From the NCBI GenBank assembly GCA_027492205.1, contig JAOZFN010000011.1:129123-193122 (forward strand): a stretch of 64,000 nucleotides of DNA. The letters are read 5' to 3'. Under the pieces are notes generated by a model. The model saw only the letters and a program-made list of their open reading frames with translations, was not told the origin of the DNA and did not search any database. Source of the stretch: Thermoproteota archaeon (lineage in GTDB: Archaea; Korarchaeota; Korarchaeia; Korarchaeales; Korarchaeaceae). Of the stretch, positions 3,158-50,877 are shown one piece after another; positions within the stretch are counted from its first letter, which is position 1; each line of letters begins with the position of its first letter. A program made the translations under genes and the position numbers.

Positions 3158-3254
3158 GCGCCCCCCTCCGGCGCTCTAAATTAACCTCCCACCTTTGTCT
3201 GCGGCGCAGAGGACCGCACCACCTTATAATCAGGGGCGTGGGCTTTAGGGCGGC

Positions 3255-31789: not shown

Positions 31790-32470
31790 GTGAAAATGAT
31801 AGGCCTCTCGGCCTACTTGGCCCGAATAATCGAGCAGATAGTCGGATGGATACCCAGCATCATAAAGGCCGTGGCTATCCTGATAATCGGTTGGGCGGCT
31901 GGCAGGGTGTTCGGCAAGGCGGTCTCCTTCGCCCTAGACAAGATAGGGGTAGACGACGCCCTCAGGCAGACCAGCGTGGGCAAGGCGATAGAGGCGCGGG
32001 CGAAGATAAGCCTCGCCTCCGTCTTTGACGTCATAGCCAGGTGGTTCGTCTACCTGCTCGCGCTCACCGCGGCCTCCGAGGTGCTGGGGGTCGAGAGGCT
32101 CAGCGCCTTCCTGCAGCAGGTCGTGGCCTACCTACCCGACCTGGCGGCGGGCATAGTCATCATACTCGTCGGATTCGTCGTGGGCGACTTCCTGGGCGAC
32201 CTGGTGATCGAGACGGCGGAGAAGGGAGGCATCGAGTGGGGCGGCCTGTTCGGCAACCTCTTCAAGGTCATGGTGTACTTCGTGGTGTTCCTAGTGGGCC
32301 TCAGGCAGATGAGGATAGACGTGACGCTTCTCGAGGCGCTGGTCAAGTACCTCGCCATCGGAGTGGCCGTGGGCTCCGCGGTTGGCCTGGGAGTCGCGCT
32401 GGGCTGGGGACTCAAGGACGTCGTCAAGGAGTACGCGGAGAAGAAGATCCTGCCGAGGCTGGAGAAGTGA
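31790..32470 (+). CDS. TM-helix repeat protein (MscS-associated/CmpX-like)
   Basis: Repeated WIPSIIKAVAILIIGW / YLPDLAAGIVIILVG motif. Confidence 0.85.
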   Translation: MKMIGLSAYLARIIEQIVGWIPSIIKAVAILIIGWAAGRVFGKAVSFALDKIGVDDALRQTSVGKAIEARAKISLASVFDVIARWFVYLLALTAASEVLGVERLSAFLQQVVAYLPDLAAGIVIILVGFVVGDFLGDLVIETAEKGGIEWGGLFGNLFKVMVYFVVFLVGLRQMRIDVTLLEALVKYLAIGVAVGSAVGLGVALGWGLKDVVKEYAEKKILPRLEK

Positions 32471-34572: not shown

Positions 34573-36189
34573 ATGTCCGAGACCCCCCGACGTAACTTCT
34601 TGAAGGTGGCCGGAGCGGCCGTCGTGGCCGCCGCCTTGGGCATCATAGGGTATAAGGTGGCCAAGAAGCCGTCCCCGACCCCCGCCCCCACCACCCAGCC
34701 CCCCTCCACGACCGCGGCGCCGACGACCGCCCCGCCGCCGAAGGAGAAGGTCCTCATCTTCGGGCTGAAGGAGGATATAGTGACCCTCGACCCGGCGATG
34801 CACAGGAAGAGGGTCACTGAGAGCGTCATCCAGCAGTACGCCGAGCCGCTGTTCTGGAGGACCAACGACATGAGGGTCATCCCGCACCTGCTGGAGTCCT
34901 ACGAGTTCGTCGACGACCTGACCTGGAGGCTGAAGCTGAGGAAGGGGATCAAGTTCCACGACGGGACCGAGCTGAAGGCGGAGGACGTGAAGTTCACGCT
35001 GGAGAGGATCCTAGACCCCAACCAGAACTCCCCCAGGGCCAGCATGATAGACGAGATCGACACCATCACGATAATCGACGACTACACGCTGGAGATCAAG
35101 ACCAAGTACCCGAGCGGCCCGCTGATGGTGGACCTCACGTACCAGGAGATGCTGCCCAAGCATGCCGTCGAGGCGCAGGGGGAGGACTTCTTCAAGAACC
35201 CGTTCGGCACCGGCCCGTTCAAGTTCGTGGAGTGGGTGCCCGGCGAGAGGATAGTCTTCGAGAAGAACCCCGACTACTGGGGCGGTCCAGCTGAGGTGCC
35301 GCCGGTCGGCCCGCCGAAGGTCGACAAGCTGATCTTCAAGGTCATTCCGGACTCCGCCACGCGGATGCAGGCCCTGAAGGCGGGCGAGATCCACATCTCC
35401 TATGGGTTCACCGCGGACCAGGCCGAGGAGATGGCGAAAGACCCAAACCTGGTGGTCGAGAAGGTCAGGGCGGCCAGGTCCGTCTTCGTGTTCCTGAACA
35501 CCCACAAGGCCCCGTTCAACGACAAGAGGGTCAGGCACGCCCTCAACATGGCGGTGGACGTTGACGCCATCATTAAGAACGTGCTGAAGGGCTACGGACG
35601 CAGGATAGCCTGCATGTCCTTCCCCGGCGTCCTGGGGCACGACCCGAACCTGGAGCCCTTCCCGTACGACCCTGACAGGGCGAGGCAGTTGCTCGCCGAG
35701 GCCGGCTACCCTGACGGCTTTGACGCCGTCATGATGTACGACGAGGAGTGGAGGAAGGACCAGGCCGAGGCCATCGCCTACTACCTCGGGCAGGTGGGGG
35801 TCAACGTAACGATCCAGCTCATGGACTGGGGCACCATCAAGAACGAGTACCTCCTCAAGGCCAAGGGTGACATGTACTTCGGCTCCTGGGGATGCGGCGA
35901 GCTGGAGCTCTACGGGAACGTGAACTCCACCTTCGCCAGGGAGAAGGACACCTACGCGTTCCAGTACCACAACGACGAGGTCACCAGGCTTATGAAGGAG
36001 GCCCTCGCCACGCTCGACCCGGAGCAGAGGGCCCAGAAGTTCATGGAGCTCGAGAGGATCCTGCAGGAGGACGCTCCCGCCATCTGGCTGTGGGAGCAGT
36101 TCGACCCGTGGGTCTACAGGAAGGAGGTCACGTTCACCCCCAGGACCGACGAGAGGTACAACCTGGTGGATGCCGACATAAGCGTCTAA
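34573..36189 (+). CDS. Peptide/nickel-family (family 5) ABC substrate-binding protein, Tat-exported
   Basis: RRNFLK twin-arginine signal, P/T-rich linker, LRKGIKFHDG..AEDVKFT and GTGPF. Confidence 0.95.
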   Translation: MSETPRRNFLKVAGAAVVAAALGIIGYKVAKKPSPTPAPTTQPPSTTAAPTTAPPPKEKVLIFGLKEDIVTLDPAMHRKRVTESVIQQYAEPLFWRTNDMRVIPHLLESYEFVDDLTWRLKLRKGIKFHDGTELKAEDVKFTLERILDPNQNSPRASMIDEIDTITIIDDYTLEIKTKYPSGPLMVDLTYQEMLPKHAVEAQGEDFFKNPFGTGPFKFVEWVPGERIVFEKNPDYWGGPAEVPPVGPPKVDKLIFKVIPDSATRMQALKAGEIHISYGFTADQAEEMAKDPNLVVEKVRAARSVFVFLNTHKAPFNDKRVRHALNMAVDVDAIIKNVLKGYGRRIACMSFPGVLGHDPNLEPFPYDPDRARQLLAEAGYPDGFDAVMMYDEEWRKDQAEAIAYYLGQVGVNVTIQLMDWGTIKNEYLLKAKGDMYFGSWGCGELELYGNVNSTFAREKDTYAFQYHNDEVTRLMKEALATLDPEQRAQKFMELERILQEDAPAIWLWEQFDPWVYRKEVTFTPRTDERYNLVDADISV

Positions 36190-36232
36190 TCCTTCCCCCC
36201 TCTCTCTTTTTTAGGCGGGAGCGTGTGCGCCA

Positions 36233-37258
36233 ATGTTAGACAGTGATCTCCTCCGGCTGATCGGACGGCGGATCGTCGGCCTCATTCCCGTGATGTTTGG
36301 AATTGCGATAATCGTCTTCCTGGTGTTCAGCTTCGTCCCGGGGGACCCCGTCACCATGCTGATAGGTAAGCAGAGCGACGTCAGCGAGGAGTTCATTCAG
36401 CAGCTCAGGCACAAGTACGGACTTGACAGGCCCCTCTACGTCAGGTTCTTCTACTTCCTGAGGCAGCTGATTCACGGGGACGTCGGCATATCCTACCAGT
36501 TCAACAGGCCAGCCTTGGAGGTGGTTCTCGAGAGGCTCCCGGCCACGGTTGAGCTGGCCTTCTTCGCCCTGGCCGTGGCCATCGTGATAGCCATCCCCGC
36601 CGGCATATTCGCCGCCCTGAAGGGAGGGGCGGTGGACAGGGGCATCGTGGGCCTCTCCGTGGTGGGCTTCTCGATGCCCAACTTCTGGATAGCCATGCTG
36701 CTCATCCTAGTGTTCGGGACGACCCTCAAGGTCCTCCCCATCTCGGGGAGGCTGGACGTCACCCTGACCGTCGAGAGGGTGACGGGCTTCTACATCCTCG
36801 ACGGGATACTCGCCGGGGACTGGGAGGTGGTCAGGTCAGCCCTCAGCCACATAATCCTCCCGGCCCTGTCGCTGGGCATCCCGGCGGCGGCCCTGATAGT
36901 GAGGCTCCTCAGGAACAACCTGATCAGCGTCCTTGGGGCCGAGTTCATCAGGGCGGCCAGGGCCAGGGGCCTCAGGGAGAGCGTCGTGATTTACAAGCAC
37001 GCCCTCAGGAACGCCCTCATACCGACCATAAACATCGTCGCCCTCCAGCTCGGCTTCTTCCTCACGGGATCCTTCTTCGTGGAGACCGTGTTCGCGTGGC
37101 CCGGCATGGGCAGGCTGGCCGTAGACGCGATTTACGCAAGGGACTACCCGGTCGTCATAGCCGCCGTGATGATATCGGCTCTCTTCTTCGTTCTCTCCAA
37201 CCTGCTGGCGGACATCCTGATTCTCGTGACGGACCCGCGCACCAGGGGGGTGAGGTGA
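36233..37258 (+). CDS. Peptide ABC permease (DppB-like)
   Basis: PGDP, GLDRPL, ARARGL, ETVFAWPGMG, RDYPV. Confidence 0.95.
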   Translation: MLDSDLLRLIGRRIVGLIPVMFGIAIIVFLVFSFVPGDPVTMLIGKQSDVSEEFIQQLRHKYGLDRPLYVRFFYFLRQLIHGDVGISYQFNRPALEVVLERLPATVELAFFALAVAIVIAIPAGIFAALKGGAVDRGIVGLSVVGFSMPNFWIAMLLILVFGTTLKVLPISGRLDVTLTVERVTGFYILDGILAGDWEVVRSALSHIILPALSLGIPAAALIVRLLRNNLISVLGAEFIRAARARGLRESVVIYKHALRNALIPTINIVALQLGFFLTGSFFVETVFAWPGMGRLAVDAIYARDYPVVIAAVMISALFFVLSNLLADILILVTDPRTRGVR

Positions 37259-38176
37259 GTGAGCAGGACGCTGACGACTCTCCGCGAGGACCTCCTCAGG
37301 TTTCTGGGGGGCCCCACCGTCAGTTACATGAAGAGAGACCCCGGCGCGATAGTGGGCGGGACGATATTCCTCGTGTTCGTGATGTCCGCCCTGTTCGCCG
37401 GGGTGGTCGCGCCACACGATCCCTACCAGGCCGACCTGGCGAACTCCCTGCAGCCCCCCGTGGGGTTCGGCGGATCCTGGGAGCACCCGTTGGGGACGGA
37501 CGCGATCGGGAGGGATCTCCTGAGCAGGCTGATATACGGGGCTCGGATCTCGCTGTCCGTCGCGGCCGTGTCGGTGACCCTGGCCGTCCTCGTTGGGGTC
37601 TCGCTGGGGGCCCTGTCTGGGTACTTCGGGGGGCTCATAGACGAGGTTCTGATGAGGATAGTCGACTTCTGGCTGAGTTTCCCGGCGGTGCTCATGGCGA
37701 TCTCCCTGATGGTCGTCCTGGGACCGGGCTACTGGAACGTGGTCGCCGCCATGACCCTCACGTCCTGGGTCCCGTTCGCGAGGGTCGTGAGGGGAGAGTT
37801 CCTCACGCTGAAGGAGAGGCCCTTCGTCCTGGCGGCGAAGGCCATAGGGGTGGGGAGCGCCCACATAATATTCCGGGAGGCCCTGCCCAACACCTTCCCG
37901 TCGCTGATCGTGCTCTCAACGTTCCAGCTGGCCAGGAACATAATCTACGAGGCCTCGCTCAGCTTCATCGGGATAGGCGTGAAGCCTCCGAACCCGTCGT
38001 GGGGCCTCATGCTGGGCACCGGGAGGCAGCACATCCTGGACGCCTGGTGGATCGCCATGTTCCCCGGGCTCGCGATAACCCTGGTCGTGCTGGGGATCAA
38101 CCTGCTGGGTGACTCGCTCAGGGACGCGCTCGATCCCACCATCAAGAAGAGGCTGGGGGTTGTGGAGGTACAATGA
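37259..38176 (+). CDS. Peptide ABC permease (DppC-like)
   Basis: HPLGTDAIGRDLLSRLIYGARISL and EASLSFIGIG. Confidence 0.95.
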   Translation: MSRTLTTLREDLLRFLGGPTVSYMKRDPGAIVGGTIFLVFVMSALFAGVVAPHDPYQADLANSLQPPVGFGGSWEHPLGTDAIGRDLLSRLIYGARISLSVAAVSVTLAVLVGVSLGALSGYFGGLIDEVLMRIVDFWLSFPAVLMAISLMVVLGPGYWNVVAAMTLTSWVPFARVVRGEFLTLKERPFVLAAKAIGVGSAHIIFREALPNTFPSLIVLSTFQLARNIIYEASLSFIGIGVKPPNPSWGLMLGTGRQHILDAWWIAMFPGLAITLVVLGINLLGDSLRDALDPTIKKRLGVVEVQ

Positions 38177-39141
38177 CGGCGCTTCTCTCGCTCCGGGACG
38201 TGGCCAAGTACTTCGAGATCAGGAGGGGAGTTTTCGAGAGGAGGGTTGTCAAGGCCGTCGACGGCATCAGCTTCGACGTCGAGGAGGGGCAGACCGTCGG
38301 GCTCGTCGGCGAGAGCGGGTCCGGAAAGTCCACCCTGGCGCTGACGGTGCTGAGGCTCTACGAACCTACCGGGGGGCAGGCCATATTCGAGGGCGTCAAC
38401 CTGTTCGAGCTCAAGGGGAGGGAGCTCACCAGGGTCCGCAGGAAGATGGGCATAGTGTTCCAGGATCCCTACCTCTCCCTCAACCCGGTGAAGAGGGTCA
38501 GGGACATAGTCGGCCTGCCGCTGAAGGTGCACATGCCCAAACTGAGCTTCGAGGAGAGGGAGTCAATGATCAGGGAGATGCTGGAGCAGGTTGGGCTCAA
38601 GGCGGCTGACGTAGAGAAGTTCCCCCACGAGTTCAGCGGCGGGCAGAGGCAGAGGATAGCCATAGCCAGGGCCCTGATAGTCAAGCCGAAGTTCCTCATA
38701 CTGGACGAGCCCACGTCGGCCCTGGACCTCTCGGTTCAGGCGAAGATCCTCAACCTGCTGCTGGACCTCCAGAGGGAGTTCAGGCTCACCTACCTCTTCA
38801 TAACCCACGACATGAACGTGATCAAGCACATCTCGGACAGGATCAACGTGATGTACCTCGGGAAGCTGGTGGAGTCCGCCGAGACGGAGGAACTCTTCGA
38901 GAGGCCGCTCCACCCCTACACGAGGGCCCTCCTCTCCTCCGTGCCGACGCTCGACCCGAGGCAGAGGGGGAGGAAGAAGATGCTCCTCCGCGGGGACCCC
39001 CCAGATCCCGCCAACCCCCCGCCGGGGTGCAGGTTCTCGAGCAGGTGCCCGCTGGCCGACGACCTCTGCAGGAGGGAGGAGCCGCCCCTGGTGCAGGTTG
39101 AGCCGGGGCACTGGGTCGCCTGCCACAAGGTCGGGGGGTGA
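38173..39141 (+). CDS. Peptide ABC ATPase (DppF-like)
   Basis: GESGSGKST, FSGGQRQR, PLHPYT, GCRFSSRC. Confidence 0.95.
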   Translation: MTALLSLRDVAKYFEIRRGVFERRVVKAVDGISFDVEEGQTVGLVGESGSGKSTLALTVLRLYEPTGGQAIFEGVNLFELKGRELTRVRRKMGIVFQDPYLSLNPVKRVRDIVGLPLKVHMPKLSFEERESMIREMLEQVGLKAADVEKFPHEFSGGQRQRIAIARALIVKPKFLILDEPTSALDLSVQAKILNLLLDLQREFRLTYLFITHDMNVIKHISDRINVMYLGKLVESAETEELFERPLHPYTRALLSSVPTLDPRQRGRKKMLLRGDPPDPANPPPGCRFSSRCPLADDLCRREEPPLVQVEPGHWVACHKVGG

Positions 39142-39151
39142 TTGGTGGAAG

Positions 39152-40231
39152 ATGCTCCGGATGGTGGCCCTGGCTGGAGATCCCCACGAGATGGGGCTTC
39201 AGCTGGGGAAGGAGATAAGGGGGCTGACCCCGTACATCCGAGAACTATTCGACGCAGTCAGGAGGGAGATAGGGGAGAACCCTTCCCTGGAGAAGCTCGT
39301 GGAAGACATGAGAGAGGTAGTCGAGAGGCACTCCCCCGAGTTCATCCAGATGCTGGAGGGGGTGGCGGAGGGGGCCTGGTTCGCCAGGGACATCCTCTTC
39401 GAAACCACCTGCTCCACGTTCCTCCGGCACATGCTCCACTACGGCCTCGAGTGCTCGGTCTGGGCGGTGAAGGCAGAGCACACATCCCTCGGGGAGCCGA
39501 TCTTGGCCAAGAACAGGGACAAGAGGGTCAGATACAAGCCGCTGCACCTCTTCGTCTACGCCCGGCCGAAGGGCGGCTTGGCGTACTTCGCCTCCACCAA
39601 CGCCGGCGACCCGGGCGTGGCGGGGGGCGGCATAAACGAGAGGGGACTCACGGTGTTCTCCACGTACGTGGCCTCCTCAGACATCGGCGTGGGCCTGCCA
39701 GACAACGTCCTGGCGAAGATGATACTCGAGAGCTGCTCCACGGTGGAGGAGGCCATCGACCTCCTGAAGTCGGTTCCCAGGCTGGGGCAGTTCACCTTCA
39801 CGCTGGGGGACGCCAAGGGGGACATTGCGGTGGTCGAGGTGGGATACAGCGAGCTGGACGTGGAGATCCCGGAAGAGGGGTACGCCTTCCGCACGAACCA
39901 CTTCAAGTCGGCCCGGATGAGCGAGAAGTACTACGACCCATACCACTACACGGCCTACGAGAAGGAGGACACCCTAGCCAGGTGGAGGCACCTGGACGAG
40001 AGGGTGAGAGGCGCCCTCGGCACCATAGACCTCAACTTCGTGAAGAGGCTCATGAGGTACCACGACCCCGGCGGGCACTCCATCTGCAGGCACGTCGGCG
40101 AGGGGGACGTGCCGGTGGAGACCGTGGCCTCAATGATAGCGCTTCCAAAGAGGTCTAGGATCCTGTTCGCGGAGGGGCCCCCCTGCGAGCACCCCTACGT
40201 AACCCTCGACCTCGGAGGTGGTATGCCGTGA
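39152..40231 (+). CDS. C45 family autoproteolytic Ntn acyltransferase/peptidase
   Basis: Pro-domain followed by LE|CSVW (Cys nucleophile), LAKNRD, GINERGL, RTNHF and SICRH. Confidence 0.88.
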   Translation: MLRMVALAGDPHEMGLQLGKEIRGLTPYIRELFDAVRREIGENPSLEKLVEDMREVVERHSPEFIQMLEGVAEGAWFARDILFETTCSTFLRHMLHYGLECSVWAVKAEHTSLGEPILAKNRDKRVRYKPLHLFVYARPKGGLAYFASTNAGDPGVAGGGINERGLTVFSTYVASSDIGVGLPDNVLAKMILESCSTVEEAIDLLKSVPRLGQFTFTLGDAKGDIAVVEVGYSELDVEIPEEGYAFRTNHFKSARMSEKYYDPYHYTAYEKEDTLARWRHLDERVRGALGTIDLNFVKRLMRYHDPGGHSICRHVGEGDVPVETVASMIALPKRSRILFAEGPPCEHPYVTLDLGGGMP

Positions 40232-41205
40232 CGCTCCTCGAGATACGAGACCTGAAGGTGTACTACTACGCCTTCGACGGCGTGGTCAAGGCCGTCGACG
40301 GCGTGTCACTAGAGCTCGAGAGCGGGGAGTTCTTCGGCCTCATCGGGGAGTCGGGGTGCGGGAAGTCCACCCTAGGCAACGCGATCCTCAGGCTCGTGCC
40401 CCCGCCCGGGAGGGTGGTGGGTGGGAGCATCTACTTCCAGGGAGAGGACATCCTTCGGCTCCCCGAAGACAGGATGAGGGAGATCAGGGGAGACCGAATC
40501 TCGATGATATTCCAGGACCCCACGGCCGCCCTCGACCCCGTCTACACGATAGGGGACCAGATAGTCGAGACCATACTCGCCCACAACCCGGAGGTGAGTA
40601 AGAAGGACGCCGAGGCCCGGGCGATAGAGCTGCTTAAGCTCGTGGGCATCCCCGGGGCGGAGGCCAGGGTCCACGAGTACCCCCATCAGTTCAGCGGCGG
40701 CATGCGGCAGAGGGCGGTCATCGCAATAGCCCTCGCCAACAACCCAGAGCTGCTGATAGCCGACGAGCCCACGACGAACCTGGACGTCACTATAGAGGCC
40801 CAGATCCTCACGCTGCTCGACGAGCTGAGGAGGAAGCTCAACATGTCCATCCTGCTGATCACCCACAACATTGGCATTGTGGCCGAGTACACGGATCGAG
40901 TGGGCGTTATGTACGCCGGGAAGCTCGTCGAGGTGGGCAGGACCGTCGACGTGCTCACTGACCCGAAACACCCTTATACCCAGGGACTGCTGGGCGCGAT
41001 ACCGGGCAGGGGTGGTAGGAAGGGGCGGGTTACCGAGATCCCCGGGACGGTCCCGAACCTGGCGAACCCCCCTCCCGGGTGCAGGTTCCACCCCAGGTGC
41101 CCCAGGAGGTTTGACCCCTGCGACCAGGAGGAGCCGGCCCTCGTGCCGCTCCCCGGCGAGGGGAGGATGGTGGCATGTCACCTGTACAGGAGGCCCGAAA
41201 GCTGA
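40228..41205 (+). CDS. Peptide ABC ATPase (DppD-like)
   Basis: GESGCGKST, MIFQDP, FSGGMRQR, GCRFHPRC. Confidence 0.95.
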   Translation: MTLLEIRDLKVYYYAFDGVVKAVDGVSLELESGEFFGLIGESGCGKSTLGNAILRLVPPPGRVVGGSIYFQGEDILRLPEDRMREIRGDRISMIFQDPTAALDPVYTIGDQIVETILAHNPEVSKKDAEARAIELLKLVGIPGAEARVHEYPHQFSGGMRQRAVIAIALANNPELLIADEPTTNLDVTIEAQILTLLDELRRKLNMSILLITHNIGIVAEYTDRVGVMYAGKLVEVGRTVDVLTDPKHPYTQGLLGAIPGRGGRKGRVTEIPGTVPNLANPPPGCRFHPRCPRRFDPCDQEEPALVPLPGEGRMVACHLYRRPES

Positions 41206-41213
41206 ATGAGAAC

Positions 41214-42158
41214 ATGCTCGAGATCCTGGCCATCCTCGACGGGATCGAGGGGCCGGCCACGTCGGGCGAGATTCAGCGGGAACTCAACAGGAGGGGCATC
41301 TACCTCAGCCAGAGGACGATCCGTTACTACCTGAAGCTCATGGACGAGCTTGGGCTCACAAGGAAGGTCAGGAAGGCCAGACAGATAACCAGCGAGGGCC
41401 GCAGGAGGATGCGGGCCCTCACCGTCTCCACCAGGATGGAGTGGATGCTGGACAGGATGTACCAGAGGATCGCCGAGATGGACTTCGACCTCGCGACCGG
41501 CAGCGGGTCGGTGATAGCCAACAAGCTGTTCATCAGGAGGGAGGACTTCACCTGGGTTATGCAGCACGTGATCAGCCTCGGGAAGGAGGTCCCGAGGCTC
41601 CTCTTCTACCCGAGGTATAAGGTCAGGGAGACCGGCCTGAGGAAGGGAGACCTGCTCGAGATCAAGTACGTCTCCTCAAACACCCTGTACGGCATCCTCC
41701 TCCGCAACGGAGTTCCGGTTAGCGTGAAGGGCGTCGGACTACTGGAGCTGAAGGACTACAGGCCCACGACGTTCGCGGAGGTCATGCACTACTCCGGGAC
41801 CACCATAAGCCCCTCTCAGCTCCTCATATTCGCCGGCATGACGAGGGTCGCCGAGGCGGCCAAGAGGGGGACGGGCACGGTCCTGGCCACCTTCGGTGAG
41901 ATCCCCTACAACAGCATACCCAAGGCGCAGAAGATCCTGAACAAGATGAAGGAGCTGGGCTTCGAGGGGATAATGGAGATCAGGGAGCCCGGCTTCGCCT
42001 ACGGTCTCCGAACCGGAAAGCTCAGGGGAGTGGTGATCAGCGTCACAGGGGCCAACTTTGCGGCCATGATCAAGGAGGGCGGATTCGACCTAAGGATGGC
42101 CTTTGACACCGCCATGGACGACCTCGGCGCCTTCGACAGGAACGTCATCCCCGTCTGA
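41214..42158 (+). CDS. NrpR-like regulator (wHTH plus single NRD/DUF128 domain)
   Basis: EILAIL...SQRTIRYYLKLMDELGLT HTH, FDLATGSGSVIAN, SSNTLYGILLRNGVP, YSGTTISP. Confidence 0.82.
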   Translation: MLEILAILDGIEGPATSGEIQRELNRRGIYLSQRTIRYYLKLMDELGLTRKVRKARQITSEGRRRMRALTVSTRMEWMLDRMYQRIAEMDFDLATGSGSVIANKLFIRREDFTWVMQHVISLGKEVPRLLFYPRYKVRETGLRKGDLLEIKYVSSNTLYGILLRNGVPVSVKGVGLLELKDYRPTTFAEVMHYSGTTISPSQLLIFAGMTRVAEAAKRGTGTVLATFGEIPYNSIPKAQKILNKMKELGFEGIMEIREPGFAYGLRTGKLRGVVISVTGANFAAMIKEGGFDLRMAFDTAMDDLGAFDRNVIPV

Positions 42159-43554
42159 CCTGGGACACCGAGTCCAGCAGGATCTTGAGCGCCTTGTCTG
42201 GCTCCTCGCCCGAGAGGAGGCCCATAGCCCAGAAAACGTAGTCCCTGTCCACGTACAGCTCCGGGTTCTTCGGCTTCAGAACGAAGGGGCGGGACTCGTC
42301 GTAGATAGCCTCGCCGAGGACCTTCCACGGCCTCCTGCTGTTGACGATCGGGCCTCCGGTCCCGACCACGGTCTCAACCTCGGTGAGATCCTTACCCGTC
42401 AGGACGTAGAACCTGCCCATCGGCGTCGGTATCTCCTCGAGCCTCCCAACGTGTCTCTCCACGGCCAGCTCCACCGCCGACCTTGCCAGCGCCTCGTCCA
42501 CCAGCCAGTCGAAGTAGGTCCTGGGCAGGTAGCTGGTCTGCCGGCGCAGCATGCGGATGTGCTCCTCAACGGCCTCCGGCCTTATGTCCGTCACGTACTC
42601 CCTCATCTTGGACAAGATCCTCTCCAAGCCCGCGGCCTCCATCAGCGACTCCGCGCTCACCCTGACGCCCAGGTCTCCCTCCACGGTCCTCTTCACGTAG
42701 GGCTCCTCAAGGCCCTTCTCAACGACCCCCGGGAGCTTCGACCTGCCCTCGGCCACGCTGTACACGTTTGTCGTGGCCCCGCCGATCTCCACCGCGAGGA
42801 GCTCGCCCATCCCGCTAAGCGACTTGGTCCCCTTCGCCAGCAGCTCCGCCGCCTCCAAGGAGGCGGAGGGGGTCGGCATGAGGATGTGGAGCAGCTTCGT
42901 CACCTTATCGAGCCCCTTGGCCTGAATGATCCTCTTCAGGAAGATCTCCCTGATCTTCTCGTTTGCGGGCCTAACGTTGAGCTTTCCCAGCTCCGGCATG
43001 ATGTTCTCGGTCCAGTAGACCTCCTTACCCGCCGATGAGAGTATCTCCACCACGTCGTCCCTGGCCTCCTTGTTCCCAGCCACCAAGATGGGACATTTCA
43101 GCCCGGAGGCGGCAAGCATCCTGGCGTTGTGGGTTATTGTCTTCTTGTCTCCCCCGTCCGTCCCGCCCGTTAGGAGGACGATGTCAGGTCCCTGGGCCTC
43201 TATCGACGCCACCTCGCTCTTGGTGAGTTCGAAGGAGTACACCCCAATGACCTTCGCTCCGGCCGTCAGCGCCGCCCGCCTGCCAGCCTCGGCGCTGTAC
43301 TTCGGCACGAGCCCGACCACGACCATCTTCAAGCCGCCGGCCGCGCTGCTGCAGGCCAGCTTGTACTCGAACGGGCCATCGGACAGGTCGCTCAGCGAGA
43401 GCCCCAGCTTCTCCAGGGCGCTGGCCAGGCCGCGCCTGATGTCCGTGTCAACGGTGCTGGGGGCCTTGGCGGAGGAGACCACCCGCTCCTCCGCCAGGTC
43501 CACCACCACGGCCTTGGTGAAGGTGCTGCCGAAGTCTATGAGGAGGGCCCTCAA
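42145..43554 (-). CDS. glmL: GlmL/MutL-type (ASKHA) accessory ATPase for B12 mutases
   Basis: IDFGSTFTK, ACSSAAGGL, GGTDGG, IGGATT, KRTVEGDLG. Confidence 0.9.
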   Translation of the reverse strand: MRALLIDFGSTFTKAVVVDLAEERVVSSAKAPSTVDTDIRRGLASALEKLGLSLSDLSDGPFEYKLACSSAAGGLKMVVVGLVPKYSAEAGRRAALTAGAKVIGVYSFELTKSEVASIEAQGPDIVLLTGGTDGGDKKTITHNARMLAASGLKCPILVAGNKEARDDVVEILSSAGKEVYWTENIMPELGKLNVRPANEKIREIFLKRIIQAKGLDKVTKLLHILMPTPSASLEAAELLAKGTKSLSGMGELLAVEIGGATTNVYSVAEGRSKLPGVVEKGLEEPYVKRTVEGDLGVRVSAESLMEAAGLERILSKMREYVTDIRPEAVEEHIRMLRRQTSYLPRTYFDWLVDEALARSAVELAVERHVGRLEEIPTPMGRFYVLTGKDLTEVETVVGTGGPIVNSRRPWKVLGEAIYDESRPFVLKPKNPELYVDRDYVFWAMGLLSGEEPDKALKILLDSVSQVRRG

Positions 43555-43557
43555 GGG

Positions 43558-44643
43558 CTATTCGCCCCTCACGAATGCCACTATCTCCTCCGCAGACATA
43601 CCCTCCAGCCCGAGGTTCTTCGCGCTCCGCCCCTCGGCGTAGAAGTCCCTGTCGAAGACCGCCGACGCTATGGATATGAGGGACTTGGACACGGGAGTGC
43701 TCACGCCGACCTGCTCCCCAACGTCCGCGTATGGGACCAGGCCGGTGGGGACGTCTTCAAGCAGGTACCTGACGGCGAGCGTGGAGGGCGCCTTGATACC
43801 CCTATAGGCCTCGTTGTTCTGCAGGGCCTCGTAGACATCCCTCCCCCTAGCTCCGTACTTCTCCTCGAGCCACTCCAGCAGGTTCAAGACGTGAGTGTCG
43901 AGCGCCCTCGCCAGGGCCACCCTCTCGGCGTCGACCCTCTCTAGCACCTTTGAGACGGAGGGGCTGGCGCCCTCGACGTAGAACTCGAAGTCTCCACCGC
44001 GCTCGATCCAGCCGGCGTTCATGAGCGTTATGGTAGGGTGGAAGACCGCCCCGATATTGGTCAGGCTGGTCTCGAGGACATCCCTGGCCCCGTCGAACTG
44101 CGGGTACAGCTGGCGGATCGTGTCCAGCAGCTCTCCGGTGTCGGGAGCTGGGAGGGCGGCCAGCTTGACCTCCTTCTTGACTCCCAGCACCTTCACCCTG
44201 GTGGGCGACAGCCCCCTGGCCGCGTAGACCAGGGTCTCGGCCTCCCCGACTATCACGCCCTCGGCCCTCTCACCCAGTATCCTCTTGAACTCGATCGCTC
44301 CGAAGGTCCTGCCGGGGTTCAACAGGATCTCCTGACCCGGCTGAAGGTGGGGAGCAACCGACCGGGCGATGTACTTGTGGGCGTGAGCGGGGACGACCAC
44401 CATGATCAGGTCGGCGCCCCTCACGGCCTCCCCGGCGTCGGTGGTGGCGAGGGCGATGGGGCCGAAGCCCTCCACCGCCCCCTCCAGCTCTATCCCCCCC
44501 TTCCTCCTGACCTCCTCGAGGTCCACCTTGAACTCCGGCTCCTTTTCCTTGTAGTTGTAGAGCCTGACCTCGTGCCCCATCAGTCCCAGGTGGGCGGCCA
44601 TGGCCTTTCCGCCGTGGCCCGCTCCCATCACGGCTATCTTCAT
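43558..44643 (-). CDS. NAD(P)-dependent opine (octopine/nopaline) dehydrogenase family protein
   Basis: GAGHGG Rossmann motif, LLNPGRTFGA, NIGAVFHP, RYLLEDVPTGL. Confidence 0.92.
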   Translation of the reverse strand: MKIAVMGAGHGGKAMAAHLGLMGHEVRLYNYKEKEPEFKVDLEEVRRKGGIELEGAVEGFGPIALATTDAGEAVRGADLIMVVVPAHAHKYIARSVAPHLQPGQEILLNPGRTFGAIEFKRILGERAEGVIVGEAETLVYAARGLSPTRVKVLGVKKEVKLAALPAPDTGELLDTIRQLYPQFDGARDVLETSLTNIGAVFHPTITLMNAGWIERGGDFEFYVEGASPSVSKVLERVDAERVALARALDTHVLNLLEWLEEKYGARGRDVYEALQNNEAYRGIKAPSTLAVRYLLEDVPTGLVPYADVGEQVGVSTPVSKSLISIASAVFDRDFYAEGRSAKNLGLEGMSAEEIVAFVRGE

Positions 44644-44673
44644 CCAATCGCCTCCCACAGATTCACGCTAAGC

Positions 44674-46359
44674 TCAGATGAGCCTTCCCTTGAAGTAGTC
44701 GTCCAAGATCCTCTGGATGCGCTCGCTCTCGGGGAGGGGCCTCTTGGTCTCCGGGTCGACCGCGTAGGCGGCCCCGTTGATGATCCTGGTCTCGATCTCT
44801 CCTCTGGCGTAGGGGTTGTTCTTCAGGTGAGGCGCGTCCAATATCCCTATCTTCAGGGCCCTGGCGAGCGTCTCGGGGTCGGTCCACGGGTCCTCGACAT
44901 CGGGGTCAGCGATCTTCCTGATAGCGTCTAGCGTGATATTGGCCTCCCTCACCAGCTCCTCCCTCCTGGCCTGGATCTTCGGGTCCTTGGTCACGTCGGG
45001 CAGGCCGTGCAGCGTGTCGCTGATCACTTGATGCACGATCTTGCCGCTCTCTATGATCTCCTCAGCCGTGGCGGCGTGATCGGGCTCGGTGTACGCCACC
45101 ATGTGAATTATGTGGGGCTTTAGGTGCATCTGCATCGTCACGGAGTAGGCCATGTGGCCCTTGGCCGCGTCGAGGTCCGGCGGGTAGCTGGACAGACCGG
45201 TCCTGGTTTGAATGAAGATCTTGAAGTTCTCGTCTTCTAGGGGCTTGATTATGTCTATCTTGGCCAGCTGCTTGGCCAGGTCCATCTCGGCCGAGATCCC
45301 TGGCGGGAGGTCGAACATCAGCGTGGCGATGTAGTGCTTTACCCCCGCCTTCTTGGCGTTGTAGGCTGACAGAAATGCGTCGGCCACCGCGATTACGTCG
45401 GGCGCATCCCTCAGCTCGAAGTGGTGGGGCTCGTTCAGCTCGACGGGGATGTTCCTCTCGCCGTGCCAGGCCATCAGCCTCTGGTGCTCGTCTATGGCCT
45501 CGACTAGGTCCAAGGGGCCCCTTCCGTCGAGCCTGCTGAACCAGAAGATCGGGATGGCCGCCCAGGCGTTCTTGATGGTCCTCACCAGGAGGTCGGCCAT
45601 CTTGAACAGGTCGCTGGTGCCCTGGTAGCACCTCAGAAGCGGGTAGTTGCCGGTCCTGGTGGCCTCGTAGATCCTGATGAGGTCGTCCTCCGACCTTATG
45701 GGCACGCCTCCAGCCCCGGCCCTCCCGGGATCCCACTTCTCCGGGTGGAAGAAGTTCTCCTGGAACTCCTGGTCTGGGGCTATTGAGATCACGTCGATGA
45801 GCTTGGACTCGGCCACCTTCCTGGCCGCCTCCACGGTCTCCTCGACGGAGCTCAGCCCAAGGTGCTGCCTGATGATGGGGTAGGGGTACTTCCAGGCGAT
45901 CCTCTCGACGGTCGTCTGCGGGTAGTGCTCTTCTCCCCTGCCAGCTTCGCCCCCTCCCTTCAGGTAGGACACGACCTCGTCCATGGTCTCCCTGCCGCTG
46001 AACACCCTGTCGAAGAACCCGAAGCTCTTGGCCACCTCGGCGACGGGCGGAGTGCCCCCGAACACGTACCTCTTGTCCTCCAGGCCAGCCTCCTTCACCG
46101 CGCTGATAAACCGCTCTATCCAGTACCTTCCAGACTCTGGCATCAGCCTGTAGCTTATTCCGACTATGTCGGGGTCTGTCTCCTTTATCGCCGCCACTAT
46201 CTCCTCGGGGGTGTTTGCCGGCCCCAGGAATATCGTCTCATATCCGACCTGCTCTGCCAGCCTCAGAAACTTGATTATTCCAGCAACGTGGACGTCCTCG
46301 CCAAGGGCGGCGGCGAGGATCTTTGGTCGCCTTCCCTCACTCCTCTCGCCGGACGACAT
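44674..46359 (-). CDS. Cobalamin-dependent enzyme: N-terminal B12-binding domain fused to a probable TIM-barrel
   Basis: GEDVHVAG (DxHxxG), VGISYRL and FGG. The roughly 420-aa C-domain has no radical-SAM CxxxCxxC. Confidence 0.88.
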   Translation of the reverse strand: MSSGERSEGRRPKILAAALGEDVHVAGIIKFLRLAEQVGYETIFLGPANTPEEIVAAIKETDPDIVGISYRLMPESGRYWIERFISAVKEAGLEDKRYVFGGTPPVAEVAKSFGFFDRVFSGRETMDEVVSYLKGGGEAGRGEEHYPQTTVERIAWKYPYPIIRQHLGLSSVEETVEAARKVAESKLIDVISIAPDQEFQENFFHPEKWDPGRAGAGGVPIRSEDDLIRIYEATRTGNYPLLRCYQGTSDLFKMADLLVRTIKNAWAAIPIFWFSRLDGRGPLDLVEAIDEHQRLMAWHGERNIPVELNEPHHFELRDAPDVIAVADAFLSAYNAKKAGVKHYIATLMFDLPPGISAEMDLAKQLAKIDIIKPLEDENFKIFIQTRTGLSSYPPDLDAAKGHMAYSVTMQMHLKPHIIHMVAYTEPDHAATAEEIIESGKIVHQVISDTLHGLPDVTKDPKIQARREELVREANITLDAIRKIADPDVEDPWTDPETLARALKIGILDAPHLKNNPYARGEIETRIINGAAYAVDPETKRPLPESERIQRILDDYFKGRLI

Positions 46360-46730: not shown

Positions 46731-47276
46731 GTGGGGGACCAGGAGTTCGAGGCCGTGATCCAGGTTGCTCGACTCATGCTGGTGGCCGCGAGAACCGCCC
46801 CAAAGGCAAAGGGGGTTGACTCGATCGAGGCCACGATCGCCACGGGGGACGACCTGTCGAGGCTGGCGGAGAAGATGCGGGAGCTCTCTCGGGAGAGGGG
46901 CTACTCCTTCTACGAGAGGGATGCCGGGAGCGTTGAGGCCTCCGACTGCGTCGTGGTGATTGGCGCAAGGGCTCAGGAGGCGCTGGGCATGGACTGCGGG
47001 ATGTGCGGATACCCGAGCTGTGCTGAGCGGGTAGAGTAGTGGAGATCCCGAGGTGAGCCAATGAGAGGCCCATTCTGTGAGTTCAAGGTCATGGACTTGG
47101 GCATAGCGGTTGGATCGGCTGTCAAACTCGCTTCCCTCCTCAACGTTGACAACAGAGTCATGTACAGCGTGGGAGACGCCGCCATTTCCCTGGGGCTGCT
47201 CCCCGGATCGACCGTGGCCCTTGGGATACCGCTTGCGGCGAGGGGTAAGAGCCCCTACTTCGACAGGAGGGGGTAA
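46731..47276 (+). pseudogene. DUF2148 ferredoxin-domain protein with one in-frame TAG
   Basis: AARTAPKAKG..., DCGMCGYPSC, TAG at 47037-47039, then in the same frame GPFCEFKVMDLGIAVGSA..VDNRVMYSVG..KSPYFDR. Confidence 0.85.
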
Positions 47277-47348
47277 CGATCGATATTATGTCTTGGTGAA
47301 ATATTAAGTTATCTGTTTACCAACACGAGATCCCGGCGGAGACGTCCG

Positions 47349-47753
47349 ATGGTAAGGCGAGTCGCCGTGGTCGACTCGGACCTGTGCGTCGGATGTGGGA
47401 GCTGCATGCTGGCGTGTAACCGGCGGTTCGCTGAGGTCGGTTACGGTAAGACGGCCATACACATCCGGAGCGCGGGCGGGATCGAGAGGGGTTTCGTCGT
47501 CATCGTGTGCAGGGCCTGCAAGAACCCCCCGTGCGCCAAAGTCTGCCCTGAGGATGCCCTACTTCCCAGAGACGGTGGAGGGGTTCGCCTGCTCCCGAAC
47601 AAGTGCATCGGCTGCGGCTACTGCGTCGAGGCCTGCCCGTTCGGCGCCATCCTCTGGGACGAGGAGGTGGACAAGCCGGTCATCTGCACCTACTGCGGCT
47701 ATTGCGTCGAGTACTGCCCCTACGGTGTGATCGAGATGAGGGAGGTGAGCTGA
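47349..47753 (+). CDS. 4Fe-4S dicluster protein (AOR partner)
   Basis: CVGCGSCMLAC, CRAC...CAKVCP, CIGCGYCVEACP, CTYCGYCVEYCP. Confidence 0.95.
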   Translation: MVRRVAVVDSDLCVGCGSCMLACNRRFAEVGYGKTAIHIRSAGGIERGFVVIVCRACKNPPCAKVCPEDALLPRDGGGVRLLPNKCIGCGYCVEACPFGAILWDEEVDKPVICTYCGYCVEYCPYGVIEMREVS

Positions 47754-49520
47754 GTGGCCGTCAAGCTTCCGGTAAACCTGGCGAGGGTCCTGTACGTGGA
47801 CCTCACCAGGAAGAGGTCCTGGGTGGAGGATCGGAGGGATCTGATCGAGGAGTACCTCGGAGGCGTTGGCCTGGCGGTGGCCCTCGCCAGAGAGGAGGGA
47901 GTGGAGAGGGCCGATCCTCTGGGCCCGGAGAACAGCGTAGTGTTCGCGGTGGGCCCGTTCAATGGGGCCTACCCGATGGGGTCCAAGACCGTCGCGGTGT
48001 TCAGGAGCCCCCTCACCGGCAACCTCGGCGAGAGCTACGCCGGGGGGAGGAGCAGCCTCGCCATCAAGTTCGCCGGCTACCAGGCGATAGTGATCAGGGG
48101 GGCCAGCGAGTCCCCGGTGTACGTCGCAGTTCACGAGGATGAGGTGAAGTTCAGGGACGCAAGCGCCCTGTGGGGCATGTCCAGCAGCGAGACCGTGGGC
48201 AGGGTGATAAGGGAGAGGGAGCCGAACCCCGGGTTCAGGACCATAATGAGGATTGGGCTGGCCGGGGAGAGGCTAGTGAGGTTCGCCTGCGTGGTCACGG
48301 AGACCTACCGACACTTTGGGAGGCTCGGGCTCGGAGCCATCTTCGGGGCCAAGAGGCTCAAGGCCCTGGTGGTCTCCGGAAGGCGATCCCTGGAGGTCCC
48401 CGACAGGCGGGGATACAGGGAGGTGTACGACGAGCTCTACGAGCTCTCCACCAAGTCCAACCTGATGAGGAAGTATCACGACCTGGGCACGCCGATGAAC
48501 GTCCTCCCCCTGAACGAGATCGGGGCCCTACCGACGAAGAACCTCAAGTCGGGCAGGTTTGAGCGCGCCGATGGCATCTCAGGCGAGCACATGGCCGAGA
48601 ACTACCTGATACGAAGGGCCGCCTGCTCCGGCTGCCCGGTCGCCTGCATACACCTGGCGGGGATCAGGGAGCCCTACCCCCACGAGAAGTACTTCTACAA
48701 GACCACGGTCGTTTCCTACGACTACGAGCCCACCTACTCGCTCGGGAGCATGCTGGGGGTTGGAGACGCCAAGTGGCTCCTCAGGCTCATCCACGAGGTG
48801 GAGAGGGTTGGGCTGGACGCAATGAGCACCGGCGTCGCCCTGGCGTGGGCCACGGAGGCGCTGGAGCGCGGGCTGGTCAGGGAGGAGGACACGATCGTGA
48901 AGCTGAGGTGGGGCGACGCCGAGGCCTATAGGAGGGCAATCTCCCTGCTGGTCGAGCAGCCGAACGATTTCTACTCTGCGCTGGCACAGGGTGTGGAGAG
49001 GGCGTCTCAGATCTACGGAGGATCTGAGTTCGCCATGGCGTTCGGCGGGAATGAGATGCCCGGGTATCACACCGGCCCGGCCGCCCACATCGGCTTCCTG
49101 ATAGGCGGGAGGCACAGCCACCTCGACAACGCCGGCTACTCTTACGATCAAAAGAGGGCCGAGCTCCCAGATCCTGAGCAGGTTGTGGACGACCTCATGG
49201 CCGAGGAGGCCTGGAGAATGGTCCTCAACAGCCTAGTCGTGTGCCTCTTTGCGAGGGGGATCTACAGGCCAGAGGTGGTCTCCAAGGCCCTGGCCCCGCT
49301 CGGCATAAGGCGCTCCGTAGAGGACCTCCGGGAACTCAGCTGGAGGATCTACCGCGAGAGGATGAGGCTCAAGGTGGACGCGGGCTTTGACCCGTCTAGG
49401 CTCAGGGTCCCGGACAGGATCTTCGAGACGCCGAGTCCCCACGGCCTGATATCCCCCGACTACGTTCAGAGGGCGCTGGAGCACTACCGCCAGAGGCTAA
49501 AGGATATCTGCTCTCCGTAG
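47754..49520 (+). CDS. Tungsten aldehyde ferredoxin oxidoreductase family protein
   Basis: YLGGVG, SPLTG..GESYAGG, GRLGLGAIFGAKRLKA, CSGCPVAC, GLDAMSTG. Confidence 0.95.
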   Translation: MAVKLPVNLARVLYVDLTRKRSWVEDRRDLIEEYLGGVGLAVALAREEGVERADPLGPENSVVFAVGPFNGAYPMGSKTVAVFRSPLTGNLGESYAGGRSSLAIKFAGYQAIVIRGASESPVYVAVHEDEVKFRDASALWGMSSSETVGRVIREREPNPGFRTIMRIGLAGERLVRFACVVTETYRHFGRLGLGAIFGAKRLKALVVSGRRSLEVPDRRGYREVYDELYELSTKSNLMRKYHDLGTPMNVLPLNEIGALPTKNLKSGRFERADGISGEHMAENYLIRRAACSGCPVACIHLAGIREPYPHEKYFYKTTVVSYDYEPTYSLGSMLGVGDAKWLLRLIHEVERVGLDAMSTGVALAWATEALERGLVREEDTIVKLRWGDAEAYRRAISLLVEQPNDFYSALAQGVERASQIYGGSEFAMAFGGNEMPGYHTGPAAHIGFLIGGRHSHLDNAGYSYDQKRAELPDPEQVVDDLMAEEAWRMVLNSLVVCLFARGIYRPEVVSKALAPLGIRRSVEDLRELSWRIYRERMRLKVDAGFDPSRLRVPDRIFETPSPHGLISPDYVQRALEHYRQRLKDICSP

Positions 49521-49683
49521 CCGGGGTGTGGGGTCCCTTTCCCCAAGTCGGCGGGAGCGGCGGACTCGAGCGATATATCGATTGTTGAAAGATCGTAAAT
49601 CTCTAGGGTTCAGAATATTTATACATGATCGGCGGTTGGGGTTTTCGCTCCCGTCGCCCAGGCGACGGAGGGGAAGTGGAAGC

Positions 49684-50877
49684 ATGGGAGAGACGAGAGT
49701 GCTGATTCTGGGAGGCGGGGCCGTGGGGACCATGGTGGCCAACAAGCTGGCCAGGGACCTGAGGACCGACATCGCCAGGGGGAAGGTCAGCGTGACGGTG
49801 CTCGACAAGAGCCCCACCGCGGTGAACCAGGCCGGGTTCACGTTCGTCCCCTTCGGGTACTACACCGAGGAGGACCTGAAGAGGCCGAGGGCCATGCTCC
49901 TGAGCCCTCGGATTAGAGCCCTCGTCGGGCCCGAGGGGGAGGTCGTGAGGGTCGACCTGGCGAACAGGGAGGTCACGGTCAAGAGCGGCAGGAAGTTCAC
50001 CTACGACTACCTGCTCATCTCCACCGGCTGCACCCTCGACCCAAGCGCCGTTCCAGGCCTGAAGAACGACTTCAGCTCGTTCTACACCTCCATAGAGGAC
50101 GCCAAGCGGCTGGGGGAGAAGATAAAGGCCATTTCAGGCGGGAAGATCGTCGTGATGACGCCGAAGATGCCCATAGCCTGCCCTGGGGCCCCGGGTAAGT
50201 TCACCGTGATTTTGGACGACTACCTCAGGGGCGTGAAGCAGAACAGGGAGGACTTCGACATCACCTTCCTCTGGCCGGTCCCCAACATCGGGCCCCCGGC
50301 GTACAACGAGAACATCACGGAGAACTTCAAGGCAAGGGGGATAAGGGACGTGAGGGAGTTCCAGCTCGAGAGGGTGGACGAGGAGAGGAAGGAGGTGGTC
50401 TCCAAGGACGGCGAGAGGTACAAGTACGACCTCCTCGTCACGATCCCGCCGCACAGGGGGGTCAAGGCCCTCAAGGACTCCGGCATAACTGACGAGGACG
50501 GGTGGGTCCCCTCGGACAAATACACCCTCCAGTACCGGGGTCCGGCGGGGAACTACGACGAGGTCTTCGTGGCCGGAGACGCTGGGCCGAAGGAGATACC
50601 GAAGATGGGGGTCACGTCCCACTTCCAGGCGTTCGTGGTGGGGGAGAACATCCTAAGGGACATCAGGGGCGTGGGGGACATGGTCCTCTACAGGGGGCAC
50701 ATGGGGTGCCCGTACGTGGGAGGCGCGCCAACTCCAGCCAGCAGGGGCGCGGCGACCCTGGCGGTCTGGAAGTACGGAGTTCCGCTAGGTCCGTTCAAGC
50801 CGGCGAGGCTCGGGTGGAGGGTGTACAGGATGTACTACTACATCTTCTGGGACTCAACGCTTAAGGCCCTGATGTGA
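49684..50877 (+). CDS. FAD-dependent oxidoreductase, sulfide:quinone reductase-like
   Basis: ILGGGAVG, YDYLLISTG, IACPGAP, IPPHRG, VFVAGD, and a C-terminal Cys. ATG follows a GGAAG-like RBS. Confidence 0.85.
   Translation: MGETRVLILGGGAVGTMVANKLARDLRTDIARGKVSVTVLDKSPTAVNQAGFTFVPFGYYTEEDLKRPRAMLLSPRIRALVGPEGEVVRVDLANREVTVKSGRKFTYDYLLISTGCTLDPSAVPGLKNDFSSFYTSIEDAKRLGEKIKAISGGKIVVMTPKMPIACPGAPGKFTVILDDYLRGVKQNREDFDITFLWPVPNIGPPAYNENITENFKARGIRDVREFQLERVDEERKEVVSKDGERYKYDLLVTIPPHRGVKALKDSGITDEDGWVPSDKYTLQYRGPAGNYDEVFVAGDAGPKEIPKMGVTSHFQAFVVGENILRDIRGVGDMVLYRGHMGCPYVGGAPTPASRGAATLAVWKYGVPLGPFKPARLGWRVYRMYYYIFWDSTLKALM

Follow-up and report, generated by a model that had tools for sequence, protein, structure and literature searches.

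A korarchaeal copy of an orphan B12 enzyme-opine dehydrogenase module, with a probable radical isomerase, beside a separate importer operon

The stretch of DNA analyzed here, referred to below as the window, comprises 64,000 nucleotides (nt) from the genome of a Thermoproteota archaeon of the family Korarchaeaceae (GenBank assembly GCA_027492205.1, contig JAOZFN010000011.1, positions 129,123 to 193,122 of the forward strand). Its subject is a B12-binding protein of 561 amino acids (aa) encoded in one minus-strand operon with an opine dehydrogenase (OpDH) and a GlmL/MutL-family ATPase, with spacers of 15 nt between the B12 and OpDH genes and 3 nt between the OpDH and GlmL genes. This operon is convergent with a plus-strand operon for a substrate-binding protein (SBP), two ABC permeases, two ABC ATPases, a C45-family hydrolase and an NrpR-like regulator, and the ends of the two operons overlap by 14 nt (42145-42158). 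All ten genes were located by an open reading frame (ORF) list and by Pfam and NCBIfam scans where an earlier note on this DNA had placed them, and the gene content and layout described there are borne out (Table 1). The B12 protein, the OpDH, the SBP and the regulator are all without an NCBIfam equivalog. An Rfam scan of positions 30000-52000 matched no riboswitch or other family, and a tRNA scan of positions 28000-52000 for an integration site found none. The locus represents a real orphan B12 pathway, of which the pair of B12 enzyme and OpDH is the widespread part.

Table 1. Genes of the two convergent operons, with window coordinates and the family matches on which their assignment is based
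Gene product	Position	Strand	Family matches
B12-binding protein, 561 aa, single chain, predicted glutamate-mutase-like, N-terminal Rossmann B12 domain then TIM barrel	44674-46359	-	PF02310 42.5 bits (cut-off 32.1)
Opine dehydrogenase (OpDH), putative acidic-amino-acid/NADPH-type class, 366 aa	43558-44658	-	PF02317 164.5 bits (cut-off 30)
GlmL/MutL-family accessory ATPase, 469 aa	42145-43554	-	NF040745 accessory_GlmL 584.9 bits (equivalog cut-off 475); PF13941 546 bits
Family-5 (Opp/Dpp/Nik cluster) SBP (SBP_bac_5), twin-arginine signal	34573-36189	+	PF00496 331.8 bits
ABC permease, DppB/OppB type	36233-37258	+	PF00528 126 bits; PF19300
ABC permease, DppC/OppC type	37259-38176	+	PF00528 108 bits; PF12911
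ABC ATPase, OppD type	38173-39141	+	PF00005; PF08352
C45-family Ntn autoproteolytic acyltransferase/hydrolase proenzyme	39152-40231	+	NF040521 188.4 bits (cut-off 85); PF03417 80.6 bits
ABC ATPase, OppF type	40228-41205	+	PF00005; PF08352
NrpR-like regulator, winged helix plus one NrpR regulatory domain	41175-42158	+	PF01995 159.3 bits; PF08461 50.8 bits

The B12-binding domain carries D22-V-H24-V-A-G27, the base-off/His-on motif DxHxxG reported in the earlier note. The motif is present as described, with the nuance that its Asp is not family-wide: across 43 aligned family members, His24 and Gly27 are invariant, and the Asp position holds Asp in 21, Cys in 21 and Gly in 1. By sequence, only the first ~130 residues of the protein match solved structures, all of them B12 domains, and a PDB-sequence profile search with the family alignment (A1) recovered B12 domains only, the barrel being too divergent for alignment to the E component of glutamate mutase (GlmE). 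An AlphaFold2 (AF2) model built from 43 homologs reached a pLDDT of 91.4, and its best Foldseek match in the PDB was GlmE (1cb7_B; E value of 1.1e-16, 16% identity, TM scores of 0.56/0.65 and 464 aligned columns), followed by ornithine 4,5-aminomutase, lysine 5,6-aminomutase and the acyl-CoA mutases (MCM). As modeled, the 561-aa protein has a single-chain adenosylcobalamin (AdoCbl)-isomerase fold, with the Rossmann domain first and the TIM barrel second. A prediction of the complex of B12 protein and OpDH (alignments A1 and A3) gave a score of 0.00 against a mark of 0.32 and is informative in neither direction.

The predicted fold also bears on a reading in which the protein is a corrinoid (methyl-cobalamin) protein or methyltransferase and not a radical isomerase. 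Its B12 domain matches corrinoid proteins by sequence as well (4jgi, MttC and MtgC), and some source records name homologs "methionine synthase"; the variable Asp of DxHxxG points the same way, but the C-terminal 400 residues fold like AdoCbl-isomerase barrels, and no methyltransferase is among the top matches listed. Members of the family are fused to or linked with GlmL/MutL, which accompanies AdoCbl mutases, and a cap domain (B12-binding_2) had no Pfam match in the 561-aa protein. On the grounds of barrel fold, GlmL/MutL linkage and fusions, and cap domain, the corrinoid methyltransferase reading was rejected, and we would give it very little credence.

Glutamate mutase (GlmS/GlmE with GlmL; EC 5.4.99.1; Clostridium cochlearium, structures 1cb7 and 1i9c) resembles the window system in its His-on B12 Rossmann domain, its TIM-barrel fold and the GlmL-type ATPase encoded alongside. 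Unlike GlmS/GlmE, the window protein consists of one chain, in which the S domain is N-terminal, and it is not a GlmE sequence member: PF06368, the GlmE family, scores 16 bits (E value of 0.0046) against a cut-off of 26.6. Together with the low identity of the best structural match, this score places the B12 enzyme outside every characterized clade, in line with the expectation of the earlier note. An hhalign comparison of alignment A1 with three canonical GlmE sequences had a probability of 2%; in this low-confidence alignment, the proteins are colinear from GlmE residue 116 onward, with the GlmE segment HGTPD opposite QGTSD (246-250) and E171 near D278. By eye, and in a low-confidence alignment, R66 of GlmE would correspond to R164 of the 561-aa protein and R100 to Q200. 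GlmE R66, R100 and R149, which we take to be the substrate-binding arginines, and E171, presumably the catalytic glutamate, are invariant in alignment A2. Within the B12 family, 29 checked barrel residues, seven Arg among them, are invariant in all 43 aligned members.

Another locus (L113; G047:C9) encodes a 619-aa protein with a weak MutE-like barrel and a C-terminal B12 domain, i.e., in reversed order relative to the window protein, and has no OpDH partner. This architecture suggests a locus of the 2-methyleneglutarate-mutase type. Directly next to the gene is one for aconitase-C, and a MutL gene is located ~1.2 kb away on the same contig.

Among 8000 candidates scored, 6492 homologs of the 561-aa protein had E values of <=0.001. 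Members with 50-57% identity to it are found in Chloroflexota, Bacillota and Bipolaricaulia under generic names only, and the ESM Atlas likewise holds only clusters with generic "cobalamin-binding" names. Of the representatives in a 50%-identity library, 947 had E values of <=1e-3, and 174 of these had values of <=1e-30. Gene context was compared in a sample of 96 loci encoding the B12 family (16 genome loci and 80 metagenome loci). An OpDH homolog is present in 84 of them, on the same strand and within 500 nt in 79, and each of the 12 loci that lack it has <1200 nt of flanking sequence on at least one side. The OpDH and B12 genes of six Firmicutes loci share one base. Together, the B12 protein and the OpDH form the conserved unit, and the partnership proposed in the earlier note is upheld.

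The family itself has been predicted before, and the earlier designation of the system as undescribed does not stand. In the part of their paper that deals with it, Zhang, Rodionov, Gelfand and Gladyshev (2009; BMC Genomics 10:78; PMC2667541) describe a predicted novel B12-dependent family in 11 bacteria of four phyla that is "always adjacent" to a pfam02317 OpDH, with a D-Ala:D-Ala ligase and an asparagine synthase nearby in several organisms. The distant N-terminal B12-binding domain and the adjacent OpDH (15 nt away here) agree with the window system, and the pattern matches that of the 96 loci. Their account lists no archaea and mentions neither GlmL nor a function; what the window contributes is an archaeal copy whose operon includes GlmL and which adjoins an importer and C45 hydrolase. 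Literature searches found no functional paper or characterized pathway for the combination of B12 enzyme and OpDH, and the earlier statement that no characterized pathway contains this gene set holds to that extent.

Beyond the OpDH, no neighbor is frequent. Within four genes of the B12 gene, in 73 loci that were nonredundant at 85% identity, the recurrent products were DUF5698/DUF2179 proteins (7 loci), Ddl-like ATP-grasp enzymes (6 loci), NUDIX-GNAT and GNAT proteins (5 loci each), asparagine synthase (AsnS) and LacI (4 loci each), a cyclic di-AMP (c-di-AMP) receptor (3 loci) and Na+/H+ exchangers (3 plus 2 loci). In addition, one representative protein fuses the B12 family to a glutathione-synthetase/RimK-type ATP-grasp domain. 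In an unclassified bacterium (L003), a group II intron reverse transcriptase/maturase (3004-4422) separates an H+-pyrophosphatase (H+-PPase) gene from the module operon, which encodes an OpDH, a Ddl-like ligase, a thioesterase, GlmL, a second OpDH and the B12 protein. Three Firmicutes loci (L009, L015 and L016) have a gene for a 520-aa FAD (DAO) and Rieske fusion adjoining the OpDH-B12 pair on the opposite strand. At L007, L010 and L014, lysine riboswitches (111-119 bits) a few kilobases downstream of the pair precede a conserved run of five genes.

The OpDH of the window matches 1bg6, the Arthrobacter enzyme CENDH/ArODH, with an E value of 4.5e-83. Its GxGxxG segment (G12-A-G14-H-G16-G17) and H207, which falls in the column of ArODH H202, are each kept in all 63 B12-linked OpDHs, as are R117 and G203, which stand at the positions of ArODH A111 and N198 in the 63 sequences aligned. 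The sections of Telek et al. (2024; PMC10787698) on these enzymes describe six hot-spring opine dehydrogenases (mODH-45, -47, -48, -49, -55 and -582), ~40% identical to ArODH, whose preferred substrates are L-Asp, L-Glu or cysteate together with pyruvate and whose usual cofactor is NADPH. There, exchange of ArODH A111 for R together with N198 for G is reported to switch the preference from Phe to Asp. The window OpDH shares this Arg/Gly pair and the N14H, D34N and D36 changes, having H15, N35 and K37 where the same sections list changes at ArODH positions 14, 34 and 36; the likeness to the mODHs is one of described residues only. The text of PMC10787698 has zero occurrences of "B12", "cobalamin" and "neighbo", and gene context is not discussed in it.

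From these residues, the OpDH would be expected to belong to the class that uses NADPH to condense acidic L-amino acids with pyruvate. The constants reported for the mODHs with Asp in the same sections of PMC10787698 are modest (kcat of about 0.1-1.8 per s and Km of 0.5-25 mM), which suggests a related acidic amino acid, and not Asp, as the native substrate. Because the partner enzyme has a glutamate-mutase fold, 3-methylaspartate would be the obvious candidate.

Regulation in bacteria provides a further indication of the role of the pair. Six of nine Firmicutes loci have a c-di-AMP riboswitch (RF00379; 95-111 bits versus a cut-off of 38) immediately upstream of OpDH-B12; of the other three, two have an OpDH gene cut by the contig end, and upstream sequence is limited to 354 nt in the third. 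Potassium and osmolyte transporters are under the control of this riboswitch class. Its position in Firmicutes points to ion or osmotic stress rather than nutrient use, and the catabolic direction assumed in the earlier note is thereby called into question. RF00379 was found in none of 20 metagenome loci tested. Whereas this regulon is a feature of the Firmicutes loci, it does not extend to the window archaeon: positions 30000-52000 contain no RF00379 match, and its genome has no DAC cyclase domain, so the riboswitch link cannot apply in this organism.

The third gene of the minus-strand operon was assigned to GlmL rather than to its ornithine counterpart, as the ornithine Or-4 model reached 334.6 bits against a cut-off of 600. 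A GlmL homolog is encoded in 10 of the 96 loci. In a FastTree phylogeny of 89 B12 proteins, the window protein belongs to a clade of eight rows (99% local support), all of them GlmL-linked, and a second small clade holds the other three. Furthermore, three representative proteins fuse the B12 family to a MutL/GlmL domain. The association with GlmL proposed in the earlier note is thus confirmed within the clade of the window protein. The window genome (1.94 Mb, 96% complete) contains exactly one GlmL/MutL-family gene, exactly one OpDH and a CobA-type adenosyltransferase (217 bits), and a whole-genome search gave no GlmE match. Because GlmL is single and GlmE has no match in this genome, GlmL can serve only the 561-aa enzyme here, and a radical, AdoCbl-dependent role of that enzyme is therefore supported.

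The same features could describe a fused GlmS-GlmE glutamate mutase that works with GlmL in glutamate fermentation or a methylaspartate-type pathway, the OpDH being incidental: the best structural match is GlmE, the GlmL protein passes the NCBIfam equivalog for the methylaspartate mutase accessory protein, and the genome has no other GlmE. However, the PF06368 score and the structural identity of 16% are both low for such an enzyme, and methylaspartate ammonia-lyase (PF07476) has a best match of only 21 bits, below the cut-off of 27, in the 96%-complete genome. In addition, canonical GlmE (746-761 bits) and the B12 family (about 20 bits) co-exist in three of the five bacterial carriers examined, all three of them Firmicutes, so the B12 family is not a mere fused glutamate mutase; a near-obligate OpDH partner would also be left unexplained. 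The canonical glutamate mutase reading was rejected on the sub-cut-off PF06368 score, the co-existence with GlmE, the lack of the ammonia-lyase and the presence of the OpDH partner, and its probability appears very small.

The plus-strand operon encodes a transporter of the Opp/Dpp type. The twin-arginine signal of its SBP was recognized by TIGR01409 (21 bits; cut-off of 16.7) and scored just under the cut-off of the Pfam TAT model (22.5 versus 22.7 bits). The nearest solved relatives of the SBP are an unnamed SBP (5u4o) and peptide, glutathione and heme binders, with the opine binders AgaA and AccA further down. The C45 frame is open from 39098, and its likely start is an ATG at 39152, 10 nt after the stop codon of the preceding ATPase gene. 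Flanked by an ATPase gene on either side, the C45 gene is part of the transporter operon; its product has no solved relative by sequence. In the closest relative (G008:C55:23299-24429; 97% identity), the C45 gene contains one in-frame TAG. The sequence GGAA-N6-TTCC, which we take to be the NrpR operator motif, has no match in the window, against 0.83 expected by chance.

The earlier note had joined both operons into a single catabolic system, in which the SBP and ABC transporter import an acylated or peptide-linked modified amino acid, the C45 enzyme frees it, and the OpDH and the B12 enzyme, kept active by GlmL, degrade it under NrpR-like control. Inheritance within the genus of the window organism is in keeping with this. 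Among 43 genomes of the phylum, the B12 gene is found in four (G000, G008, G010 and G003) and the C45 gene in G000, G008 and G010, with a distant relative (29%) in G007; the two operons occur together in the three genomes of the genus (G000, G008 and G010). Both the B12 and C45 genes are missing from G011, a 95%-complete genome of the same genus in which the matches to window positions 31886-32467 and 46773-48232 lie ~4.3 kb apart on one contig, compared with ~14 kb in the window. Within the genus, the two operons behave as one insertion/deletion block. Their convergence with overlapping ends and the opine binders among the family-5 SBP matches also agree with an integrated system. The bacterial pair, moreover, is sometimes accompanied by amide-forming enzymes (Ddl-like ATP-grasp, GNAT and AsnS in 6, 5 and 4 of the 73 loci), so an amide-linked product that C45 could open is conceivable.

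The wider distribution argues otherwise. C45 and NrpR-like homologs occur in 2 of the 96 loci, both from the genus of the window organism, and in none of the 94 outside it, and the window SBP has one further weak match outside the genus (L095; 30% identity). G003 has the B12 gene but no C45 gene. The SBP falls below every equivalog cut-off, with generic peptide and glutathione binders as its best solved relatives, and joint loss is expected of adjacent genes with or without a shared function. Of the claim of a single system, joint presence in three genomes and joint absence from a fourth were thus found, whereas the predicted co-location of C45 and SBP with the B12 protein did not extend beyond the genus. 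Coupling of the importer operon to the B12/OpDH module, suggested by co-inheritance at the level of the genus, is possible, but an integrated catabolic system as a whole seems unlikely.

The surroundings of the two operons contain further genes of redox and ion metabolism. Between the B12 gene and the ferredoxin and aldehyde:ferredoxin oxidoreductase (AOR) genes, two short plus-strand ORFs occupy different frames of positions 46731-47276; the first (46731-47039) has a C-terminal Cys-rich FeS-like motif (PF04060, 21 bits, below cut-off), and the second (47061-47276) has a full DUF2148 match (110.7 bits). The two ORFs represent either separate genes or parts of a single frameshifted gene. Divergent from the B12 gene, positions 47349-50877 (plus strand) encode a ferredoxin, an AOR and a pyridine-nucleotide-disulphide oxidoreductase, and an AOR is also encoded near the module at L087. 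The block is flanked by genes for a mechanosensitive-channel-like protein (31790-32470), a Na+/H+ exchanger (51355-52611) and an H+-PPase (52640-54646). Na+/H+ exchangers and H+-PPase recur near the module in unrelated loci, as an ion-homeostasis theme.

Taken together, the minus-strand operon is probably an archaeal copy of an orphan two-enzyme module of many anaerobes, composed of a His-on AdoCbl-type radical isomerase with GlmL as its accessory protein and an acidic-class OpDH, next to a separate importer. In the mechanism proposed for it, the B12 enzyme would act on glutamate or N-(1-carboxyethyl)glutamate and rearrange the carbon skeleton to one of the 3-methylaspartate type, and the OpDH would form or cleave the secondary amine with pyruvate; the sequence could run in either direction. 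GlmL would act as the accessory ATPase of the 561-aa radical isomerase. The plus-strand operon, with its NrpR-like regulator and the C45 amidohydrolase embedded in it, would be an Opp/Dpp-type importer in its own right that is joined to the module only in the genus of the window organism.

Several points weigh against this interpretation. The B12 family has no published function or activity for any member, and GlmL is absent from 86 of the 96 loci. Of the 43 family members, 21 have Cys in place of the Asp of DxHxxG, and the TIM barrel is not reliably alignable to GlmE by sequence, as the hhalign probability of 2% indicates, so that any conservation of the glutamate-binding residues would be hypothetical. 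Membership of the mODHs in the B12-linked clade would be deduced solely from the described residue pattern. Lastly, the joint gain and loss of the two operons fits functional coupling as well as mere adjacency.

A more specific and rather speculative variant, to which we attach a low probability, is that the substrate of the B12 enzyme would be no free amino acid but the secondary amine or imine made by the OpDH from pyruvate and an acidic amino acid, with the N-(1-carboxyethyl) group taking over from the pyridoxal phosphate of the aminomutases in stabilizing the radical of a 1,2-shift. The product would be a branched tricarboxylate amine that could serve as a stress solute or potassium counter-ion. 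Other members of the community might produce an amide-linked form that the window organism brings in through the importer and opens with the C45 enzyme; the module would then work in reverse, giving glutamate and pyruvate. If true, radical rearrangement on an opine-type amine would be a kind of AdoCbl chemistry without a described precedent.

The known reaction types of AdoCbl-dependent isomerases number roughly a dozen, and the family considered here is a large one that has been without a function since its prediction in 2009. It is now directly testable: its near-obligate partner belongs to an OpDH class with published in vitro substrates (acidic amino acids plus pyruvate), and cultured carriers exist, namely, Tissierella simiarum MSJ-40 and Wansuia hejianensis NSJ-26. 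The pair of B12 enzyme and OpDH is widespread, and the importer is linked to it only in the genus of the window organism. The archaeal copy combines the module with GlmL in a genome without any further glutamate-mutase gene, which strengthens the reading of its B12 protein as a radical enzyme, and the importer and hydrolase that accompany it in these archaea could point to the compound on which the module acts.

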